A DNA stretch of 64,000 nucleotides, from positions 123,554-187,553 of the forward strand of contig JAPOVQ010000006.1 of NCBI GenBank assembly GCA_026708035.1, in the 5' to 3' direction. Position numbers and translations under genes: made by a program. Source of the DNA: Chloroflexota bacterium. Its GTDB lineage: Bacteria; Chloroflexota; UBA11872. Shown here piece by piece: positions 43,879 to 53,517 of this stretch. How positions within the stretch are numbered: the stretch's first letter is position 1; the number at the start of each line of letters is the position of its first letter. Below the pieces are notes generated by a model. The model made no database searches, was not told the origin of the DNA, and saw only the letters and a program-made list of their open reading frames with translations.

Positions 43879-45936
43879 TCAGGTCGCCACTTCGACAGGG
43901 GCTCGCCGCGGCTTGGGCGTTCTCATGGACTCTATCCGTCGAGTCGCCGGTTGGGTCGCTCTGGTCGACCCGCCGTCGCCCGACTCCACGTCCGCGCACC
44001 GCTTGAGATGCACCAGCAGCACGGCAATGTCCGACGGTGTAACGCCCTCGACGCGCGCCGCCTGGCCCACCGTGGCCGGCTGGAACTTCTCGAGCCGCAG
44101 CCGCGCCTCCGTGCGCATGCCGTGGATGTCCGGATAGCCGATCGTCGCCGGGATGCGCGCCTGCTCCATCTCGCGCGCCCGCGCGACCTGCGCGGTCTGT
44201 TGCCGCACGTAGCCGGCATAGCCGATGTCGAACTCCACCGCCGCGGCGGCGGCCGGCGAGACCGACGGACCGCCGCCCGCCAGCTCGACGCTGAGGTCCA
44301 GGGTGACGCCGGGACGGCGGAGGAACTCGGCGGCGGGCAGCGTTTGGGTCACCGGCGGCAGGCCGAGCTGCCGCAGCCGCTCCGCGACGGCCGGCGTCGC
44401 GGGAACGCGGGCGTCCGCGATCCAGGCCTTGGCCCGCTCAATCTCGTCCCGCGTCCGACGCAGCCGGCGGACCCGAGCCTCGCCGGCCAGGCCGACGCGA
44501 TGGCCAATCTCGGTGAGCCGCATGTCGGCGCTGTCGTGGCGCAGCAACAGGCGGTACTCGGCGCGCGAGGTGTGCAGGCGGTACGGCTCGGTGAGGTCTC
44601 GGCTCACGAGATCGTCAATCATCACGCCGATATAGGCCTGGTCGCGGCCCAGGACCAGCGGCTCGGCGTCTTGGATGCTCCGCACGGCATTGATCCCCGC
44701 CATGAGGCCCTGGGCCGCCGCCTCCTCATAGCCCGTCGTGCCGTTGATCTGCCCGGCGAGGAAGAGACCGGCGGCGCGCTGGGTCTCCAATGTGCGCGTG
44801 AGTTGGAAGGGGCGGACGAAGTCGTACTCCACCGCGTAGCCCAGGCGGATCACCCCGGCGTCGCGCATCGCCGGCACGCTGCGAATCATCTCGATCTGGA
44901 TTTCGGCGGGAAGGCTCGTGTTCGCGCCCTGCACGTAGACCTCGGGCGTGGCGAAGCCTTCCGGCTCGAGAAACAGGGTGTGCGCGGGCTTGTCCGCGAA
45001 GCGCACGACCTTGTCCTCGATGGAAGGGCAGTAGCGCGGACCGGGGACCGTGATCGCGCCGTTGAACATGGGCGCGCGGTGCAGGTTCGCGCGGATCACC
45101 GCGTGCGTGCGCTCGTTGGTGGCGACCCGATAGCAGGGCATCTGCACCCGCCATCCTTGTTCCGGCACGTGGGGGTAGGCGGCGTGCCGCGGCTCCGCGA
45201 GCCGCTCGTCGACGGGTACGGGATCGAAGCTGAAGTGCAGCGGGTCGGTGGATCCCTGCTGGACCTCGGCGCGTGAGAAGTCGATCGTGCGTGCGTCCAC
45301 GCGCGGCGGCGTGCCGGTCTTGAGTCGACCCAGATCGAACCCATGGCGCGCCAGATCGTCCGCCAGGGCCGTTGCCGGCGCCTCGTCCGCGCGACCGCCG
45401 GGCGTCGACTCGTCGCCCCGGATCAGCCGCCCTTTGAGGAACGTGCCCGTGGTGACAACCACCGCTCGGGCCGTGTAGGCGCGGCCGTCCGCGGTGCGAA
45501 CGCCGACGACCCGCCGGCGTCGCTCGCCACTCCCCGAGACCTCGCGCCAGATTAGGCGCTCCACTTCGCCCTCGACCAGGTCGAGACCGGGTTGGCGCTC
45601 GACCACCTGCCGCATGGCGATGCCATAGAGCCGCTTGTCGGATTGCGCCCGCAGCGCGCGCACCGCCGGTCCCTTGCCGGTGTTCAGCTCCCGGATCTGG
45701 ATGAGGGTGCGGTCGGTGTTGCGGCCCATCTCGCCGCCCAGCGCGTCGATCTCGCGCACCAGGTTGCCCTTGGCGGGACCGCCAATGGATGGATTGCACG
45801 GCATCAGCGCCACGCTGGACGTGCCCAGGGTGAGCATCAGGGTGCGGGCGCCCATGCGGGCGGCGGCCAGCGCGGCCTCACAGCCCGCATGGCCCGCGCC
45901 GACCACGATGACGTCGTAGTTCGCGGCGGATGCCAT
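43879..45936 (-). CDS. mnmG: tRNA uridine-5-carboxymethylaminomethyl(34) synthesis enzyme MnmG (GidA)
   Basis: FAD motif DVIVVGAGHAGCEAA and a MnmG-like sequence along its whole length. Confidence 0.9.
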   Translation of the reverse strand: MASAANYDVIVVGAGHAGCEAALAAARMGARTLMLTLGTSSVALMPCNPSIGGPAKGNLVREIDALGGEMGRNTDRTLIQIRELNTGKGPAVRALRAQSDKRLYGIAMRQVVERQPGLDLVEGEVERLIWREVSGSGERRRRVVGVRTADGRAYTARAVVVTTGTFLKGRLIRGDESTPGGRADEAPATALADDLARHGFDLGRLKTGTPPRVDARTIDFSRAEVQQGSTDPLHFSFDPVPVDERLAEPRHAAYPHVPEQGWRVQMPCYRVATNERTHAVIRANLHRAPMFNGAITVPGPRYCPSIEDKVVRFADKPAHTLFLEPEGFATPEVYVQGANTSLPAEIQIEMIRSVPAMRDAGVIRLGYAVEYDFVRPFQLTRTLETQRAAGLFLAGQINGTTGYEEAAAQGLMAGINAVRSIQDAEPLVLGRDQAYIGVMIDDLVSRDLTEPYRLHTSRAEYRLLLRHDSADMRLTEIGHRVGLAGEARVRRLRRTRDEIERAKAWIADARVPATPAVAERLRQLGLPPVTQTLPAAEFLRRPGVTLDLSVELAGGGPSVSPAAAAAVEFDIGYAGYVRQQTAQVARAREMEQARIPATIGYPDIHGMRTEARLRLEKFQPATVGQAARVEGVTPSDIAVLLVHLKRCADVESGDGGSTRATQPATRRIESMRTPKPRRAPVEVAT

Positions 45937-46790
45937 GGTCAGGGGCGGCGCGAGACGGCGCCAGTCCGTCCCGGTCCGAGACGAGGGTCGCGGGCTATAA
46001 TTGGCGTCAACGTTGGCCGGCCGATCGTTCCGTTGGTCGCGCTCCGGAGCCCATTATCGTTACCAGCGGGCCTGACTTCACCACCCAGGTCGTCGATGCG
46101 TTCGTCGTGCCCACCGAAACCGGGGCCGCGTTCTTCGTCGATGCGGACTACGCGGAGTTGGACGCCGCCAACGGGCCGGTGCAATTGGCCATCTACAGCC
46201 CCTATGAGGTGTCGCCGGGCGAGGTCGCGGTGGTTCGCGGGCGTCTGGAGGCAGACCTTTTCAGCTATGCGGCATCGGCGGCCGGCCTGGGACGGTCGTG
46301 GATGCGCCACGCGCTGCTGGCAATCCTCGAGCTCACGATCCTCGGGGTGCTCGTAGCGTTTCTGATTGCCAATCCATCGCGCGTCGCATTCATCGTGGGC
46401 TGGGCGCTGCCCTTTGGGTTCTTCATCGCCACTCGCTCGGCGCTGCACGCGTTCGCGCAGCGTGGCTACGGCGCGCGCGCGCGCCGTCTGATGGAATCCG
46501 GGGCAGTGCTCGCCGAGCCGGCCATTTCGCAGTTTGGCGGCAGCTTGGCCCACGTGCGCGACATTTGGCGCGGGCTGGAGGAAGGCGCGTTTGCCCGCGA
46601 CACGGTGGCGCTTGAGCTCGCCTCCGAGCGGCTGCTGCGCTGGCCCGGAGCCGTCGCGTTCTATCGCTCGCAGCGACATGCGGACGAGCCCTCGCAGCCG
46701 CGGCCGCTGCGAAGTCGGCTGGCGCGCCTGCTCCTCCCCAAACGACCCGTCGCCCCGCTGACGACGCTGGTCGCTCGACCCCGCCCATGA
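45930..46790 (+). CDS. hypothetical membrane protein (soluble beta-rich N-domain plus two TM helices); first gene of four-gene unit
   Basis: Coding-like frame, but the start is doubtful. ATG 45930 overlaps the divergent mnmG start, and a perfect TATAAT lies inside the ORF at 45996-46001. Confidence 0.45.
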   Translation: MPWSGAARDGASPSRSETRVAGYNWRQRWPADRSVGRAPEPIIVTSGPDFTTQVVDAFVVPTETGAAFFVDADYAELDAANGPVQLAIYSPYEVSPGEVAVVRGRLEADLFSYAASAAGLGRSWMRHALLAILELTILGVLVAFLIANPSRVAFIVGWALPFGFFIATRSALHAFAQRGYGARARRLMESGAVLAEPAISQFGGSLAHVRDIWRGLEEGAFARDTVALELASERLLRWPGAVAFYRSQRHADEPSQPRPLRSRLARLLLPKRPVAPLTTLVARPRP

Positions 46791-47566
46791 TGCAACTGGT
46801 GTGCTGGGCAGTCCCTGTGCGCGGCGGTTATGTGCTGCGCGCCGATCAGGCGGCGCGGGCCGCCGTTCTGGCCGCGGATGGGCGCCGTCCCCAATTCGTT
46901 GACTGGGCCGTGGCCATCGTGCATCCCGGGTCTTCGGGCTTCTCCGCCGCGCGCGTCCACCGGCCAACCGTCCTGGCGATCGAATCGGCAATGCGCCGCG
47001 GCGCGCAGACGCGCCCCAACCCCGCCGGACGTTTAGAGCGCCTGCGCCGCTCGTGGACCTCGCTGGCGCTGGGCGCGGCGCTGCTGGTGCTTTCCGGAAC
47101 GCACTGGGTGCTCGCGCTGGCGGGCGCGTGGCTGCTCGCCGGGCGCCCCTGGATGGCGGCGCTGCTGGGCATCGGACCGTCGGATTCACCCGCCACCGCT
47201 TGGACCGCCGCGGACGTGCAGGTCACCGCCGCGCCGCACGCGGGTCTCGGCCAGGTCGCCGACGCGCTCGAGCGCGCGCCTGACGACGCCGGAGGCTACG
47301 GCGAGGCGCTCGCGGCAGCCCAAACGCTGGGGCTCGACGAGGCCGCCGAGGTCTACTCGGCATTGATCAAGCACCCAAACCCAATGGCGCTGCCGGTCGA
47401 GGTCGGCATGTGGACGCCCGCGGCGTCGGTCGAAGATCGAGCGCCGGGCGGCGCACTGCCCGATGTCGCCGAGGCGTCGGACCCGCCGAACGAAGGCACC
47501 GACGCCGTCGCGGAAATCGAGCCCGGTGACGAGGCGTCCGACGATCCAATGGACCGCCTCCCATGA
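46787..47566 (+). CDS. hypothetical membrane protein (two TM helices, acidic C-terminus)
   Basis: ATGA overlap with the upstream stop. GC3-rich frame. Confidence 0.5.
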   Translation: MMQLVCWAVPVRGGYVLRADQAARAAVLAADGRRPQFVDWAVAIVHPGSSGFSAARVHRPTVLAIESAMRRGAQTRPNPAGRLERLRRSWTSLALGAALLVLSGTHWVLALAGAWLLAGRPWMAALLGIGPSDSPATAWTAADVQVTAAPHAGLGQVADALERAPDDAGGYGEALAAAQTLGLDEAAEVYSALIKHPNPMALPVEVGMWTPAASVEDRAPGGALPDVAEASDPPNEGTDAVAEIEPGDEASDDPMDRLP

Positions 47567-48465
47567 TTACGACAGGGGCGCGGAGCCTCGAGATCCCCAT
47601 GGACATCGACCGATTCACGGACAGTCTGCGGGGCAGCAAGTGGCGCGAGATTCGGCAGACGCTGGGCGACACCTACGAGGTGCGCACGCTGTACGAGGGA
47701 CCGCTGCCGGGCCTTCCGCGGGCGCAGGTCGTCCGACTGTCGTCGGGCGATCCCGACAGCCCCATTCGAATCCTGTTCGACGCCGTGCCCCTGAGCCTGT
47801 CGCGGCCGGTGCTGGTCGCCGGGCGCGCGGTGACCCGGGTCTTCACCTCGCGGGCACGCGAACGCGCCGAATTGCTCGATCGCATTGCCGTGCGCATCCA
47901 CGTGATCGAGGTCGACGGCGATGCCGCCGATATCCCGCCGTTGCCGCTGGCGAAAGGACTCGATGGCGGATTGCGTCTGGCGCACAGCGTCGCCAACGAG
48001 CAGGCGTGGAGCGCGTTGCGCGAGTCGGTGCAACGGTTCCGGCCGACCCTCGCCATGGACCTGCGCGATGCCGGGGCCGCGGTCCCCGACGCGAACCTGG
48101 CCCTCGTGGTGCATAGCCTCACGCACGCGGCCGGGGCAACCGACGCCGAGGCGCTCCCGGGAACGACCGAGGGCAGGGCCATTGCCCGAGACGTCAGCAG
48201 GCGCGGTATCTCGCCCTACCGGGGAACGCCGCGCGAGCGCGCGGCGGCCGGATTGCGGCAGTTCGGCCACGGCGCCCTCACGCGCATGAGCCCGCGCGAC
48301 CCTTCGCGATCCGTGGCCAGCCTCGCGACCGATCTCGTCGCAGCCGTCGGGATCACGGCGCTGTCGTTGGGGCTGCGGGAGCTTGACCGAGCGATCGCGT
48401 TGACCGAGGCCGCGGGCGCGGGCGTCGACGAGTCCATCCGCGAGTTTCGCCGCATGGGGGCTTAG
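47563..48465 (+). CDS. hypothetical soluble protein
   Basis: ATGA overlap with the upstream stop. 300 aa. No motif recognised. Confidence 0.5.
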   Translation: MITTGARSLEIPMDIDRFTDSLRGSKWREIRQTLGDTYEVRTLYEGPLPGLPRAQVVRLSSGDPDSPIRILFDAVPLSLSRPVLVAGRAVTRVFTSRARERAELLDRIAVRIHVIEVDGDAADIPPLPLAKGLDGGLRLAHSVANEQAWSALRESVQRFRPTLAMDLRDAGAAVPDANLALVVHSLTHAAGATDAEALPGTTEGRAIARDVSRRGISPYRGTPRERAAAGLRQFGHGALTRMSPRDPSRSVASLATDLVAAVGITALSLGLRELDRAIALTEAAGAGVDESIREFRRMGA

Positions 48466-49980
48466 GTGGCCGGGGAAGGGCGACCAACGCAGACCGCCGG
48501 CCTCGATCCCGTGCGCCACGCCCCCAGCATCCCCGTGGAGTACGCGCCCATTCCGGTGGGTCCCGACGAAACCGAACTGGTGGCGCACGACCGGCACCGC
48601 TTGAACGACGCCCTGGTGCGAGGAATCCCCGTCGCCCGCACCCTTCGGATTGATGAGCTTCCCGACGACGTGGCCACCGTTGCCCGGATCGAGGTCGGCG
48701 CGATTCGCCGCCTGCGGCAGGCGGCGCGGGCGGCCCAGGCGCGCCGCTGGCGAGTCTATGTGGCGGCGGCCGCGCTGCCATTCCTGACCGCCACGCTGCT
48801 GGGCCTCCTGGGCGTGTGGCTGGGCACGGTTCCGATCATCGGCGAGCCGGTCGGCGAATTCGTGGCCACTGCCGGCGGCAACGTGGGAGGGCTGCCGCTC
48901 GCGGCGGTCATTGCGGCGCTGCCGTCGGTGTGGTGGATCCGGCGCGTTCGCCGCGCGGCGCGGGCGGCGCCACAGCCCAACCTGCGCCAGGAGTCGATGG
49001 CAACGAGCGAACTCACCGTCAACGACGACCTGGGACCATTCCTCGCTGACGCGCGCGAGACGATGCGCGACATCGGCGGCATTCTGAGCGGCAACCCGCG
49101 ACCGGGCGGCGAACAGGCGCACCGACTGGCCATCCGATTCGGGGCACTGGCCCGCATCGCGGCGCGGCACGACGTGCCGTCCGTGGTTGCCCTTGCCGCC
49201 GACGCCGGCGAGCAGTTTCGCATCGCGTCACAGCCACCCGCCCGGCTCATCCCCGGCCTGCGCTTGCGGCGCCGTCCGGCCAGCGTCGTCAAGATCCTCG
49301 CCCCTTACATGCAGCGGCGGACATCGCGGGTGCAAGCACGGGCATCGCGCCTCCTGGGAATCGCCAGCGGGCTGGTCGTCGCGGCGGCCGCGTTCTTCGT
49401 CGCCGGTGTGTTCGGCATCCGAGGCGACGAAGCCCTGCTGCTGCGAACCAACGAAGCCATCGTCTTCCCGTCGTCGGGCACCGTGCTCGCGCTCCGGCAT
49501 GGCTTCGACGGTCCCGCGGACTCCGGCACGAGCACGCTCACCGTGGTGCAAGGCCCCGGCATCTTTTGGAGCTGGCCGCGGCCGATCACCGAGCGCCGAC
49601 TGGTGCCGCTCACCAACCGCGCGCTAGAAATCTCAGTGCCCTTCCCCGGCGACCCTCCCGACCAGCATCTGAATGTTGAGTTCCGCTACGAGATCGACGA
49701 CCTGAAGTCATTCGTCGCGACCATGGAGTCCCTCGACGAGATCGACTCGGCGCTGGCCCGGGTGGTATCCGCCGAACTGGCCAGAGGCTTTGCCGAGCGC
49801 TACGAGACGGAGCTGGCGACGCCGAACGCGCTGCCGGCGCCGTTCATCGTGGCCGGCCTCCAAGAGGGCGCCGGCGAATTGCTCGGAAACTTCGTCGAGT
49901 TCACGGAGTTCAGCGACGCCTTCGCGGCGTTTGGCGTAACCCTGCGGCCCGAGCCGTCCCACAGCTTCTCGCGCGACTAG
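48466..49980 (+). CDS. membrane protein with C-terminal SPFH/band-7-like domain (tentative)
   Basis: Start directly follows the upstream stop. Three predicted TM helices, then a region with SPFH-like topology (FGIRGDEALLLRTNEAIVFPSSGTV...TVVQGPGIFWSWP...LARVVSAELARGFAE). Confidence 0.5.
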   Translation: MAGEGRPTQTAGLDPVRHAPSIPVEYAPIPVGPDETELVAHDRHRLNDALVRGIPVARTLRIDELPDDVATVARIEVGAIRRLRQAARAAQARRWRVYVAAAALPFLTATLLGLLGVWLGTVPIIGEPVGEFVATAGGNVGGLPLAAVIAALPSVWWIRRVRRAARAAPQPNLRQESMATSELTVNDDLGPFLADARETMRDIGGILSGNPRPGGEQAHRLAIRFGALARIAARHDVPSVVALAADAGEQFRIASQPPARLIPGLRLRRRPASVVKILAPYMQRRTSRVQARASRLLGIASGLVVAAAAFFVAGVFGIRGDEALLLRTNEAIVFPSSGTVLALRHGFDGPADSGTSTLTVVQGPGIFWSWPRPITERRLVPLTNRALEISVPFPGDPPDQHLNVEFRYEIDDLKSFVATMESLDEIDSALARVVSAELARGFAERYETELATPNALPAPFIVAGLQEGAGELLGNFVEFTEFSDAFAAFGVTLRPEPSHSFSRD

Positions 49981-50031
49981 GCGGCGGCAGCGTGGCCGTC
50001 TCACGGCTCGGCGGCGGGTAATAATTCCCGC

Positions 50032-50739
50032 ATGGCTTCGCTTGGCGAACAGCTTCGGACGGCACGGGAAGCCGCCGCGCTCACCATCGAGGAAGCCGCC
50101 GTCGTCACGCACATCCCGCGCGAGCACTTGGCGGCGCTGGAGTCGGACAACCTGGCGGTGCTCCCCGGACCGCCCTTCAACGCCGGATTCATTCGCATCT
50201 ACGCCGAAGCATTGCAACTGCCGGTCCAGCCGCTGCTCGACCTCTACTTCGCGCAAGCGGGCGAGGTCCCGTCGATCGTCGGCGCCGGTCCGATTCCCGC
50301 CATGCGGCGCGGGCGTCAGCGGCTGCTGGCGTCACTGTTGCTCGTCGTGGCGCTGGGGATCGTCCTGGCCGTTCTGCTGATCACCAACTTTGGCGGACTG
50401 GCCGACGATGGCGGGGCGACGAACGGCCGCGATGCCGTTACGCCGTCGATTGTCGACCGGGGCGCTGTGTTCGAACTGGTCGTGCTAAGCGACACTCAGG
50501 TACGCATCGAGGTCGACGGACGCGCGCTCGTGGACGAGATCCTCGCGACCGGTGAGTCGCGCCAATGGAGCATGGAGCGGGAAACGGTGCTCGACGTCGG
50601 CGCCGGCGACGCGGTGACCATCACCATCAACGGACAGCCGCTCCCGCCGCTCGCCGACCCGGGCGAGCCGGCCCGGCACACCTGGCGAGTGGACATTCCG
50701 GCAGCGCCCACCGCCGCGCCGCGACCCACGAGCAACTGA
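50032..50739 (+). CDS. rodZ: RodZ-like cytoskeleton protein (HTH-XRE, TM, DUF4115)
   Basis: N-terminal HTH (LGEQLRTAREAAALTIEEAAVVTHIP), one TM helix, C-terminal DUF4115-like beta domain. Confidence 0.7.
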   Translation: MASLGEQLRTAREAAALTIEEAAVVTHIPREHLAALESDNLAVLPGPPFNAGFIRIYAEALQLPVQPLLDLYFAQAGEVPSIVGAGPIPAMRRGRQRLLASLLLVVALGIVLAVLLITNFGGLADDGGATNGRDAVTPSIVDRGAVFELVVLSDTQVRIEVDGRALVDEILATGESRQWSMERETVLDVGAGDAVTITINGQPLPPLADPGEPARHTWRVDIPAAPTAAPRPTSN

Positions 50740-50742
50740 CCC

Positions 50743-51336
50743 GTGGCATCCGCTCCCGAGGACGCCCGCGCCGCGCCCAAGCAGTGGCAGACCTATCTGC
50801 CCAACGCCCTCACGATCGCCCGTGTCGCGTCGATCCCGATCATCGTCTGGCTGCTGTTCTGGGACTGGTGGTTCTCGAACCAGATGGCCGGATTCGTGTT
50901 CGCCGCCGCCGGCGCGAGCGACGTCTTCGACGGCACGCTGGCGCGGCGCTATGGCACAGGCTCGCAGCTGGGTATCTTTCTGGATCTGGTTGGCGATAAG
51001 CTGCTGGTCGCCGCCGTGCTCTTCACCATGGTCGAGCTGGGCTGGATGCCGGGCTGGCTGGGCGCCAGCTTCATCGCGCGCGAGTTCGCGGTCATGGGCC
51101 TGCGGGCCTATGCCGGCGCCCAGGGCGTGACCGTCGCCGCCGGCCGCCTGGGCAAGGCCAAGATGATGTGGCAGTACATCGCCTTCAATGCGCTGATGTG
51201 GGAACGCACCGCCCTGCCGTGGTTCCTGGTCGGCGTGGCCCTGCTGCTGACGCTGGCCTCGGGCATTCACTACGCCGTGGGCGTCTGGCGGGGCCTGCGG
51301 GCCCGACCGGCGCCCGATATTCCGGAAGTAATCTAA
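50743..51336 (+). CDS. pgsA: CDP-diacylglycerol--glycerol-3-phosphate 3-phosphatidyltransferase
   Basis: CDP-alcohol phosphatidyltransferase motif DVFDGTLARRYGTGSQLGIFLDLVGD. Four TM helices. Confidence 0.8.
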   Translation: MASAPEDARAAPKQWQTYLPNALTIARVASIPIIVWLLFWDWWFSNQMAGFVFAAAGASDVFDGTLARRYGTGSQLGIFLDLVGDKLLVAAVLFTMVELGWMPGWLGASFIAREFAVMGLRAYAGAQGVTVAAGRLGKAKMMWQYIAFNALMWERTALPWFLVGVALLLTLASGIHYAVGVWRGLRARPAPDIPEVI

Positions 51337-51437
51337 GCCGCAACCCTCAGGTGCGTGGACCGCGGGAGAGCCGTCGCGCCCCGAATCCGGCCGGTTTACC
51401 ATTGGGACCGTCGCGTTTGGAGCACGGATTGGCGCAG

Positions 51438-52418
51438 ATGACGCGCTTGGCGTTGGTCGGCCACGGGCCGGACGACGAGTCCTATGTCCGCATCGCGCCG
51501 CGCGCCGGCGCCGCCGGCATCGCCGCCGTCACCGACGGCGCGCAGGGCGACTCTCACAACGTCGTCGCGGCAGCGATGCTTGCCGAGCTGCTGGACGTGC
51601 ACTCAGACGCGATCGACGCCGTGATTATCCAGACGCCCACCGACGAGCGGGCGAGCCACATCGAGGCGGCGGTGACGGCCGGCAAACATGTGCTGGTTAG
51701 TGGTCCGCTGGGGCGCTCGGCCAGCGAAGCGCGCGAAACGGCCAAAGCCTGCGCCGGCGCCAACGTGGTGCTCATGGCCGGGCAGATCGATCGCTACCGA
51801 CCGGACGTCGGGGCCGTGCGCGCGAGCATGGACGCGGGCCAGATGGGCCGACCCGGTCTCGTGCGGAGCCACCGCTGGCAGCCGCCCACGGACGGCCCCA
51901 CGGCCTGGCGGCTGGACCCAAACCGCAGCGGCGGAATCTTCATCCATGAGCTCACGCGGGATATCGACGTGGCGGCTTGGCTGTTCGACGCCCCGCCCAA
52001 CACCGTCTTCGCAGTCGCGCGTGGTGCAGACCCCGACCGACCGGATGCGGCGGTGGTGCATCTCGGGTTTCCCGACGGCGGGATGGCCGTGCTGGACGTG
52101 ACGACCGGTCTGCCCGAGGGCGAGGGCTATTGGTCGCTGCAACTGATCGGCGCGGACGGCGCCGTGTACGCCGACGACCAGCACAACATGCAGCTGCTCT
52201 ACGCGGGCGGGTCGCCCGCCGCGCGGCTCACCAGCACCGGCGACGCCACGGTCCTCGCCCAGCTTGAGGCATTCGTGGATGCGATCGACAACGGCTTGGA
52301 CCCCGCGGCGAGCATTGAGGACGCAGTCCTCGCCCTCGAAGTCGCCGAAGCCGCCATGGCGTCGGCGGCGTCCGGCCGCGCCGCCACGCGCACTGAGGAC
52401 GGCTATGTCCTCGTCTAG
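51438..52418 (+). CDS. Gfo/Idh/MocA family oxidoreductase
   Basis: N-terminal Rossmann LALVGHG and a GFO_IDH_MocA C-terminal alpha/beta domain. ATG 51438; ORF track start 51168 is an upstream extension. Confidence 0.75.
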   Translation: MTRLALVGHGPDDESYVRIAPRAGAAGIAAVTDGAQGDSHNVVAAAMLAELLDVHSDAIDAVIIQTPTDERASHIEAAVTAGKHVLVSGPLGRSASEARETAKACAGANVVLMAGQIDRYRPDVGAVRASMDAGQMGRPGLVRSHRWQPPTDGPTAWRLDPNRSGGIFIHELTRDIDVAAWLFDAPPNTVFAVARGADPDRPDAAVVHLGFPDGGMAVLDVTTGLPEGEGYWSLQLIGADGAVYADDQHNMQLLYAGGSPAARLTSTGDATVLAQLEAFVDAIDNGLDPAASIEDAVLALEVAEAAMASAASGRAATRTEDGYVLV

Positions 52419-53517
52419 CGCCAACTCGATCTTCCGCGTGGCGGTGCTGAGCGTCGTCAAGCACGACTACGTGCCCCTGGGCCTCATCACGCACCCGCGG
52501 TTCGATCCGGTCGTGGTGGCGGACGACGCCGCGCAGCCGGAATGGGTCCACGAGCGCAACCAGAAGCTGGCCGACGAGCTGAACATTCCCTACGTGCGCG
52601 ACGTGGAGGCGGCGATGCGTGACTACGACGTCCAGGTCGCCTGCGTGAGCCCCGAGGCCGAGCGCCACGCGGACCTCAGCGTGCGGGCCGCCGACGCCGG
52701 GCTGCACGTGGTGCAGGACAAGCCCATGTCGACCCTGGTCTCCGAGTGCGACCGCATCGTGGAGGCCGTGGAGCGCAACGGCGTGAAGTTCCTGATGTGG
52801 AACCGCGACATGCTGCCGGCGATGCTGCTCGCCCGACAGGAGCTGCAAAGCGGCGCCATCGGTGACGTGCGCGCCGTGCACGTCGACTTCTACTTCGCCA
52901 AGGACGCCGGTCCGCGCCGCGGAGAGAGCCCGGCCGGCTCACCCAAGATCGACTGGCTGGAAGCGCTCAAGGCCGCCCACGTGGACGGCTCGGACGGCGG
53001 TGTGGGCCACGCTCCGATGGGCGAGTTGCAAATCGAGGGCATCTATCCGCTGTCGCACATCGGGCTGCTCACGGGCGCGCGCGTCGAGCGCGTGTTCGCC
53101 CGCACGGCGGCCCACTTCCACCAGCGCAACGTGGACCACGGCATCGACGACCTCGCGTCGGTGACGCTGGAGATGGACAACGGGATCGTGGGCACGCTGT
53201 GCATCGGGCGCATCGGACGCGCCAAGCACGACAACGATGGCGAGATCAAGGTCCGCATCCTGGGCACCGCCGGCGCGATGGTCATCGACGAGCCGCGGCC
53301 CGCGGTGCGGGTCTTCTACCGGGGACGGACCGCCGGCGATTCGCCCGCGGCGCGCGTGGGCGGTGACGCCGACTGGCTCCTGATGGAGAATTTCGCCCAA
53401 GCCATCGACACCGACGGCGACACGATTCTCAACGCACGCGTTGGGCGCAACATCGCGGCCACGGTGCAGGCCGCCATCGACTCGGGCCGCACGGGCCGCC
53501 CGGTCGAGGTGACTTAG
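52405..53517 (+). CDS. Gfo/Idh/MocA family oxidoreductase
   Basis: RVAVLSVVKHD...EKP-like motif region (VVQDKPMS). Overlaps the upstream gene by 14 nt. Confidence 0.75.
   Translation: MSSSSANSIFRVAVLSVVKHDYVPLGLITHPRFDPVVVADDAAQPEWVHERNQKLADELNIPYVRDVEAAMRDYDVQVACVSPEAERHADLSVRAADAGLHVVQDKPMSTLVSECDRIVEAVERNGVKFLMWNRDMLPAMLLARQELQSGAIGDVRAVHVDFYFAKDAGPRRGESPAGSPKIDWLEALKAAHVDGSDGGVGHAPMGELQIEGIYPLSHIGLLTGARVERVFARTAAHFHQRNVDHGIDDLASVTLEMDNGIVGTLCIGRIGRAKHDNDGEIKVRILGTAGAMVIDEPRPAVRVFYRGRTAGDSPAARVGGDADWLLMENFAQAIDTDGDTILNARVGRNIAATVQAAIDSGRTGRPVEVT

Follow-up and report, generated by a model that had tools for sequence, protein, structure and literature searches.

SPFH (stomatin/prohibitin/flotillin, or band-7) proteins are universal membrane organizers whose clients are known in a few cases, namely FtsH, NfeD, PspA, and ion channels. 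Here we describe a locus in a 64,000-nucleotide (nt) stretch of DNA from a Chloroflexota bacterium of the UBA11872 lineage (assembly GCA_026708035.1, contig JAPOVQ010000006.1, positions 123,554–187,553 of the forward strand), which we call the window and in which all positions below are numbered unless stated otherwise. Four plus-strand genes, here genes 1–4, lie between mnmG and rodZ, and the last of them encodes what the evidence below indicates is a very divergent SPFH protein. We propose that the four genes probably form a lineage-specific operon for subunits of one membrane complex built around this protein as a scaffold.

Among the described SPFH systems, the HflK/HflC (SPFH3) and prohibitin (SPFH4) cages come closest in fold and predicted orientation. 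In HflK/C the SPFH domain is oriented away from the cytoplasm, unlike in stomatin and QmcA (PMC2636767). The genes of the SPFH1, SPFH2, and SPFH5 groups are typically found in an operon with an NfeD gene, NfeD proteins having, by definition, hydrophobic stretches at the N terminus and then an all-beta domain at the C terminus (PMC2636767). In Bacillus subtilis, the pspA-ydjG-ydjH-ydjI operon consists of four genes, the last of which encodes an SPFH protein; it includes two integral membrane partners and one nonintegral one, the partners are interdependent, their deletion causes a cell-shape defect, and they are linked to the maintenance of cell shape under stress (PMC8581546).

The Chloroflexota locus shares features with each of these systems. 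Like the HflK/C and prohibitin cages, gene 4 has a transmembrane (TM) anchor directly before the SPFH domain, and as in HflK/C this domain is predicted to face away from the cytoplasm (PMC2636767 for HflK/C). Unlike them, the locus has one SPFH gene and no K/C or PHB1/2 pair; the gene 4 product carries ~295 extra N-terminal residues comprising a small domain, two TM helices, and a helical bundle; and its sequence similarity to solved chains is undetectable. No FtsH-like open reading frame (ORF) is present between mnmG and pgsA, unlike in HflK/C-FtsH, and the helical C-terminal region of gene 4 falls far short of those in HflK/C and flotillin. As in the stomatin/QmcA-NfeD (YbbJ) and flotillin-NfeD (YuaF/YqiJ) operons (SPFH1, SPFH2, and SPFH5), the SPFH gene stands last and is coupled to small membrane-protein partners, whereas here there is no detectable NfeD homolog, the partners are three unrelated orphans rather than one, and the SPFH domain is predicted to lie outside rather than in the cytoplasm. 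The locus likewise resembles pspA-ydjGHI as an operon of four genes with an SPFH protein encoded last, but it encodes no PspA/ESCRT-III protein, gene 3 looks alpha/beta, gene 4 is polytopic where YdjI is probably soluble, and the partners of the two systems have no sequence relationship. It thus differs from all of these systems in the polytopic extension of gene 4, the lack of NfeD, FtsH, and PspA, the three orphan families, and the fixed linkage to rodZ. A full-text literature search for RodZ together with SPFH returned no description of such a cluster.

The SPFH Protein Encoded by Gene 4

The assignment of gene 4 comes from agreement between fold and profile searches. In an AlphaFold model computed from a 27-sequence alignment (mean predicted local distance difference test score [pLDDT] 75), residues 381–504 have pLDDT values of 74–91. 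A Foldseek search with this model returned only SPFH proteins among its top 21 matches, with E values down to 1.2e-4, and a separate fold search found human stomatin, prohibitin-1, erlin-2, QmcA, flotillin-2, and HflK among its matches. Band_7 (PF01145) is the sole Pfam family matched by any of the four proteins: residues 358–440 of gene 4 align with positions 17–101 of the profile (E = 2.8e-4), and its GPGxFWxWPxP motif is matched to the profile's N-terminal part. The same match appears at E < 0.1 in 10 of the 27 family members, with a best E of 4e-6, and precomputed PF01145 matches exist for two relatives, P0007 and P0008. As modeled, the last ~190 residues of gene 4 adopt an SPFH fold directly after a TM anchor. 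A preliminary description of this DNA, made from its letters, had proposed both an SPFH domain in the C-terminal half of gene 4 and three TM segments; the fold searches and the weak Band_7 match bear out the first, and hydropathy and the model confirm the second. These proteins have escaped annotation because they are so divergent in sequence.

Upstream of the SPFH domain, gene 4 has an architecture of its own. The small N-terminal domain contains an invariant AHDR motif (A40, H41, D42, and R43; 48583–48594), which is conserved even in relatives of 24–30% identity (L033 and L035, with AHD or AHN) and may be a functional site. In the model a long helix runs into TM1 (~96–121), and TM2 spans ~140–158. 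The helical bundle that follows is well modeled; its fold matches are generic four-helix proteins such as CheA P1, and we give them no interpretation. Beyond the SPFH strands, the model ends in helices 423–451 and 458–482 and terminal strands 491–503.

Membrane topology was assessed by hydropathy and by family-wide charge counts according to the positive-inside rule. Lysine and arginine abound before TM1, after TM2, and before TM3, the net charge over the TM2–TM3 region being +12. The TM1–TM2 loop contains no lysine or arginine; the SPFH region has a net charge of −13, and its first 18 residues hold 0.5 lysine plus arginine. The SPFH domain is therefore predicted to lie outside the cytoplasmic membrane.

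Distribution and Conservation of Gene Order

The families are small. When 5.8 billion proteins were searched with gene 4 by a word-indexed method, only 33 clusters were returned, all of ~500 amino acids (aa), the few named ones being called "hypothetical protein, Chloroflexi bacterium." Scanning one genome per species for a pattern yielded 32 loci, all in metagenome-assembled genomes of Chloroflexota, many with sponge-derived isolate names. An exhaustive HMMER search of 1.84 billion cluster representatives with gene 3 gave 13 matches, consisting of orthologs and two distant relatives (23–25% identity, same layout), none with a Pfam domain; the remaining match, a 2546-aa immunoglobulin-repeat protein aligned on a short repeated stretch, was taken as spurious.

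Gene order was read by tblastn of the window proteins against the 32 loci, which form a close clade (64–98% identity) and a distant clade (34–47% for genes 1–4). Wherever the contig reaches, the order is mnmG on the minus strand, then genes 1-2-3-4 and rodZ, in the 32 genome loci and seven metagenome loci and down to ~25–30% identity; mnmG is divergently adjacent to gene 1 in every locus with enough flank. In L035, mnmG is followed by genes resembling genes 1, 2, 3, and 4 and then rodZ, with hhalign E values of 7e-12 for gene 1, 1.4e-13 for gene 2, and 1.2e-39 for gene 4. L033 and L034 retain genes 2-3-4, and the metagenome scan added L037, which has the full block, and L038 and L039 (30% identity). 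Identity in L035, L037, L038, and L039 is 24–39%, with the same gene order. L037 (MDTE01027804.1) has a G+C content of 52% versus 62–69% elsewhere and a complete block of mnmG, genes 1–4 (32–42% identical), rodZ, and pgsA, so that the cluster is kept despite a large shift in composition. The four-gene order is kept in every relative found, so that the neighborhood check suggested with the preliminary description clearly favors a conserved unit. Judging from these searches, the operon appears to be restricted to an uncultured lineage of marine and sponge-associated Chloroflexota.

The Four Genes as a Coupled Unit

The window has a G+C content of 69%, and long ORFs are present in all six frames; therefore, codon-position composition was checked. 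G+C content at the third codon position (GC3) is 0.79–0.86 for genes 1–4 versus 0.89 for mnmG. In all four frames it exceeds that at the first position, which in turn exceeds that at the second (0.52–0.58), a pattern also seen in mnmG, rodZ, and pgsA, and the phase of highest G+C changes exactly at the junctions between genes 1–4. Genes 1 and 2, and genes 2 and 3, share ATGA overlaps at 46787–46790 and 47563–47566, and the TAG stop of gene 3 (48463–48465) is followed without a gap by the GTG of gene 4 at 48466, as originally reported.

These junctions are conserved among the 32 genome loci. The overlap of genes 1 and 2 is 4 nt in 31 loci and 7 nt in L030, and the spacing of genes 3 and 4 is 0 nt in 32 of 32, a constancy well beyond chance. 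The overlap of genes 2 and 3 is 4 nt in the close clade and in L028, L030, and L032, and the two genes lie 22–37 nt apart in most distant-clade loci. A consensus scan found no full −35/−10 promoter or terminator between the genes; it gave two terminator-like matches, both within gene 4 and fewer than expected by chance. Neither Rfam nor tRNA scanning of the window gave a match near the locus. The four genes are real and are coupled by stop/start overlap or abutment, and the proposal that the four ORFs form a coupled unit stands. Table 1 lists the features of the locus.

Spacer length departs from the usual in two loci: the spacer between genes 2 and 3 is 160 nt in L017 (6919–7080 of that locus) versus 25 nt elsewhere, and that between gene 4 and rodZ is 165 nt and very rich in G+C in L032 (9488–9654 of that locus) versus 41 nt elsewhere. 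Antisense to genes 3 and 4, a 605-aa ORF (47353–49170, minus strand) has no frame-specific GC3 support; like many other long ORFs listed for the window, it is an artifact of high G+C content.

Table 1. Features of the locus, with positions in the window.
Feature	Position	Strand	Support or remark
mnmG (gidA), divergent neighbor, left border of the block	43879–45936	−	Pfam GIDA, E 1.3e-150
Gene 1, longest ORF, from ATG	45930–46790	+	Candidate start ATT 46053 or ATC 46056, giving 46053–46790
TATAAT, likely −10 box of the operon promoter	45996–46001	+	One of two copies in the 64-kb window, both strands
GGAG, Shine-Dalgarno-like, before the proposed gene 1 start	46046–46049	+	GGAGCCCATTATCG invariant in 10/10 close-clade loci
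Gene 2	46787–47566	+	ORF, coding GC3
Gene 3	47563–48465	+	ORF, coding GC3
Gene 4, polytopic SPFH-domain membrane protein, 504 aa	48466–49980	+	GTG start abuts gene 3 stop
Gene 4, small beta-beta-alpha-beta N-terminal domain, residues 22–61	48529–48648	+	AlphaFold, pLDDT 85–91
Gene 4, TM1–TM2 hairpin, ~residues 96–158, invariant GGLPLA loop	48751–48939	+	AlphaFold, hydropathy, charge
Gene 4, cytoplasmic helical bundle, residues 175–281, K/R-rich	48988–49308	+	Predicted, well modeled
Gene 4, TM3, residues 296–317, anchor directly before the SPFH domain	49351–49416	+	Kyte-Doolittle 2.28, AlphaFold
Gene 4, SPFH (band-7) domain and C-terminal helices, residues 318–504	49417–49977	+	Predicted extracytoplasmic
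TAATAAT, −10 box 6 nt 5′ of the rodZ ATG, no Shine-Dalgarno	50019–50025	+	Conserved xATAAT
rodZ, next gene after gene 4	50032–50739	+	Pfam HTH_25, E 2.7e-17; RodZ_C, E 8.2e-11
pgsA-like gene	50743–51336	+	tblastn similarity; name from translated sequence

Genes 1–3

Searches with the other three proteins came back empty. Genes 1–3 have no match in Pfam or NCBIfam as single sequences, nor in Pfam for any family member at E ≤ 10, and their family profiles find nothing significant among all PDB sequences. PADLOC gives no match at E ≤ 0.1 for any of the four proteins, and PspA_IM30 none at E ≤ 10 in the families of genes 1, 2, and 3. By these searches genes 1–3 belong to no named family, as had been suspected from the first. 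A look-alike pattern, xVPxxxGxxLxAxD(R/Y)xxL, had raised the suspicion of an N-terminal module shared by genes 1, 2, and 4, which we rejected for want of statistical support: a full-length hhalign comparison of genes 1 and 4 gives a collinear 150-column match, but with an E value of 0.0099 and a probability of 4%, and N-terminal subprofiles of genes 1, 2, and 4 reach a best E of 0.055, whereas reversed-sequence controls reach 0.014.

Small, lineage-restricted families would be in keeping with a stress-response, defense, or mobile cargo module (membrane stress of the Psp/SPFH type, or antiphage) that sits beside rodZ by chance. We regard this origin as the least probable of those considered here: besides the negative PADLOC, PspA/IM30, and other Pfam results, the composition and GC3 of the genes are the same as those of the neighboring housekeeping genes, all 39 loci with flank have them at the same place between mnmG and rodZ, and no integrase, repeat, or tRNA lies nearby.

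The predicted products nevertheless have recognizable layouts. Gene 1 encodes a strand-rich, acidic, cytoplasmic N-terminal part, a TM hairpin (~residues 88–131 counted from codon 40), and a basic helical tail, both ends being predicted inside the cell; the beta-rich soluble part followed by two TM helices, as first described, is seen in hydropathy and in the model. The gene 2 product combines a basic N-terminal domain with an invariant CWAVPxRxG motif, one long hydrophobic region (residues 91–127, SGxHWxxALAGxWLLxGRxW), and an acidic C-terminal part. Two TM helices and an acidic tail had been proposed for it. The tail is present, with 25 aspartate plus glutamate versus five lysine plus arginine residues, but as an extension (…EPGDEASDDPMDRLP; 47460–47563, ~residues 225–259) found in the close clade only, distant-clade proteins ending ~25–30 residues earlier; the hydrophobic region, at 28–40 aa, may be either a hairpin or a single span. 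Gene 3, previously taken for a soluble protein, has a ~250-aa alpha/beta-looking domain with an invariant RD dipeptide in a conserved LRDxG motif, and it also has a C-terminal hydrophobic helix at residues 250–271, so that it is not purely soluble.

The prevalence of SPFH/NfeD gene pairs raises the question of whether gene 1 is an NfeD protein in an odd layout, its beta-rich N-terminal domain being an NfeD-type oligonucleotide/oligosaccharide-binding fold that binds the SPFH protein, as the preliminary description suggested. A strand-rich soluble part and a TM hairpin are indeed encoded within one operon together with the SPFH gene, and to our eye the segment SPGEVAVVRGRLEAD of gene 1 loosely resembles the last strands of NfeD domains. 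However, the NfeD profile PF01957 is unmatched at E ≤ 10 in 16 of 16 members of the gene 1 family, the window protein has no match at E ≤ 1, and gene 1 has no PDB sequence match. Its order is the reverse of that of NfeD, with soluble strands followed by the TM hairpin and a basic helical tail, and its model (16 sequences, low confidence, pLDDT 57) shows not a five-stranded barrel but three strands, after which a long helix runs on into TM1. Furthermore, the N-terminal domain of gene 1 is predicted inside the cell and the SPFH domain of gene 4 outside, and the gene that abuts the SPFH gene is gene 3. We therefore consider an NfeD identity for gene 1 very unlikely and set this part of the earlier proposal aside.

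Promoter and Start of Gene 1

TATAAT lies inside the longest ORF of gene 1, downstream of the ATG at 45930, as had been pointed out. It is found in nine of the ten close-clade sequences compared (L001 has TACAAT), and the distant clade has a GATATA(C/A)AC element at the same position. A consensus scan found no −35 element matching it.

The annotated start of gene 1 was suspected of being misplaced, and four observations support this: the ATG at 45930 and the divergent mnmG start (45936) share 7 nt; this ATG lies upstream of the TATAAT kept in nearly all close relatives; it is present in L005 and absent in L006–L010; and a 2-nt indel near 46010 breaks the frame in L008 and L009. It is probably not the real start. 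The internal GTG at 46107, put forward in its place, fares no better. A comparison of ten close relatives shows 10 variable sites from 46061 to 46106, every one of them at codon position 3 of the gene 1 frame, for which chance would give ~(1/3)^10, compared with one of five between 46012 and 46052; the upstream stretch is therefore translated and a start at 46107 unlikely. A DAFVVPT peptide spanning this GTG is nearly invariant across the gene 1 family.

Translation would accordingly begin between ~46044 and 46060, a region in which neither the window nor L010 has an ATG, GTG, or TTG. Upstream of the conserved peptide L010 lacks any canonical start, and in L006 and four other close relatives GTG occurs only at codon 54, where it toggles with GTC and GTA. 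In the distant clade a GTG lies two codons further on and is chosen by gene callers, and GGAGCC is kept at the Shine-Dalgarno-like site. The remaining candidates are ATT 46053 and ATC 46056, 3 and 6 nt after the invariant GGAG. Near-cognate starts are known but rare, as in infC of Escherichia coli, which uses AUU. Initiation of gene 1 at one of these two codons seems to us an evenly balanced proposal.

Downstream Genes rodZ and pgsA

The preliminary description had the operon end at gene 4, a boundary that does not hold in the relatives: rodZ is always the next gene, and in the most divergent of them it overlaps gene 4 by 8 nt (L035) or starts 3–6 nt after its stop (L038 and L039). The rodZ product has an N-terminal helix-turn-helix, a single TM segment (residues 94–126), and a C-terminal RodZ_C domain, and it matches the NCBIfam rodZ equivalogs only below their cutoffs. 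Each of the 32 genome loci, like L036 and L037, has an xATAAT element 5–7 nt 5′ of the rodZ ATG with no Shine-Dalgarno sequence between, which is likely the promoter of a leaderless rodZ mRNA. The element is absent in L035, L038, and L039, where rodZ is instead coupled to the gene 4 stop. A terminator scan found no intrinsic terminator between gene 4 and rodZ.

In the window the pgsA-like gene starts 3 nt after rodZ; it follows in most loci and is missing after rodZ in L035 and L038. The rodZ-pgsA pair presumably corresponds to ymfM-pgsA in B. subtilis, and we know of no Firmicutes counterpart of the four genes upstream of it. Further downstream are long ORFs at 51168–52418, which from its sequence we take to be Gfo/Idh/MocA-like, and at 52264–53517. 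The first of these occurs in the close clade only (74–86% identity) and not in the distant clade; therefore, the conserved block ends at pgsA.

This linkage raises the possibility that genes 1–4 encode accessory subunits, peculiar to this lineage, for the RodZ/MreB elongasome or for membrane-lipid synthesis, in which case the unit would be genes 1–4 with rodZ, and perhaps pgsA, and the SPFH protein would be one module of a morphogenetic machine rather than a generic scaffold. Gene 4 is followed by rodZ in every locus with flank, the near-abutment or overlap in L035, L038, and L039 and the proximity of pgsA point in the same direction, and partners in an SPFH operon influence cell shape in B. 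subtilis (PMC8581546). Yet in 34 loci rodZ is preceded by a conserved −10 box of its own and probably starts leaderless, L035 and L038 have lost pgsA from the block, the unrelated mnmG is an equally conserved neighbor, which makes synteny alone weak functional evidence, and no homology of genes 1–3 to the MreC, MreD, RodA, or penicillin-binding protein families was detected. We regard this alternative as doubtful, although less so than the NfeD or stress-module readings.

Discussion

We lean toward the hypothesis that genes 1–4 form a lineage-specific operon for the subunits of one membrane complex, with gene 4 as a very divergent SPFH scaffold. By analogy with HflK/C, prohibitin, stomatin, and QmcA, gene 4 would oligomerize to form a ring or cage enclosing a membrane patch. 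Its SPFH domain would lie on the outer face, in the orientation of HflK/C and prohibitin, with the N-terminal domain and the helical bundle in the cytoplasm. Translational coupling would supply genes 1, 2, and 3 in fixed proportion, and their products, with a TM hairpin, a hydrophobic hairpin or single span, and a soluble domain with a C-terminal hydrophobic helix, respectively, would be enclosed or attached partners in the role that NfeD or FtsH plays elsewhere. More speculatively, the complex could act in the organization of the cell envelope or elongasome, for example by keeping the wall and lipid synthesis associated with RodZ confined or in position; we consider this role the most likely because rodZ is always next and is coupled to gene 4 in the most divergent relatives.

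Several observations weigh against this hypothesis. With respect to the fold, the first SPFH strands (residues 331–380) have pLDDT values of 46–63, the Band_7 score of gene 4 is 21.4 bits, below the gathering threshold of 23.6, and its family profile found no solved SPFH chain among all PDB sequences. In known SPFH cages the walls are built by coiled coils far longer than the C-terminal helices of gene 4, and given the shortness of these helices oligomerization is a prediction by analogy; the orientation of the SPFH domain is predicted from a single criterion, the positive-inside rule. The model of gene 1 is of low confidence (pLDDT 57). As for the link with rodZ, its conserved −10 box means that rodZ can be transcribed alone in the lineages that have it, and the functionally unrelated mnmG is as conserved a neighbor, so that the adjacency of rodZ may reflect vertical synteny rather than function.

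The reach of these findings is limited by an uncultured lineage, by small families, and by the inferential nature of all functional statements. Within it, the locus represents a divergent SPFH subfamily that standard annotation has missed, with a new domain architecture, together with three co-inherited partner families without known relatives and a fixed linkage to the shape determinant RodZ. Should the connection with rodZ be functional, the locus would be a concrete candidate for connecting membrane microdomains with rod-shape synthesis, and a role would be gained for ~35–40 "hypothetical" gene sets in abundant uncultured Chloroflexota of sponges and the ocean. The fullest form of this idea, which we put forward tentatively and think unlikely as a whole, is a previously undescribed SPFH machine with an outward cage, a cytoplasmic AHDR domain and helical bundle that serve its subunit for signaling or binding, three partners of new families, and genetic wiring to RodZ. 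If true, such a machine would couple membrane-microdomain organization directly to cell elongation in Chloroflexota.

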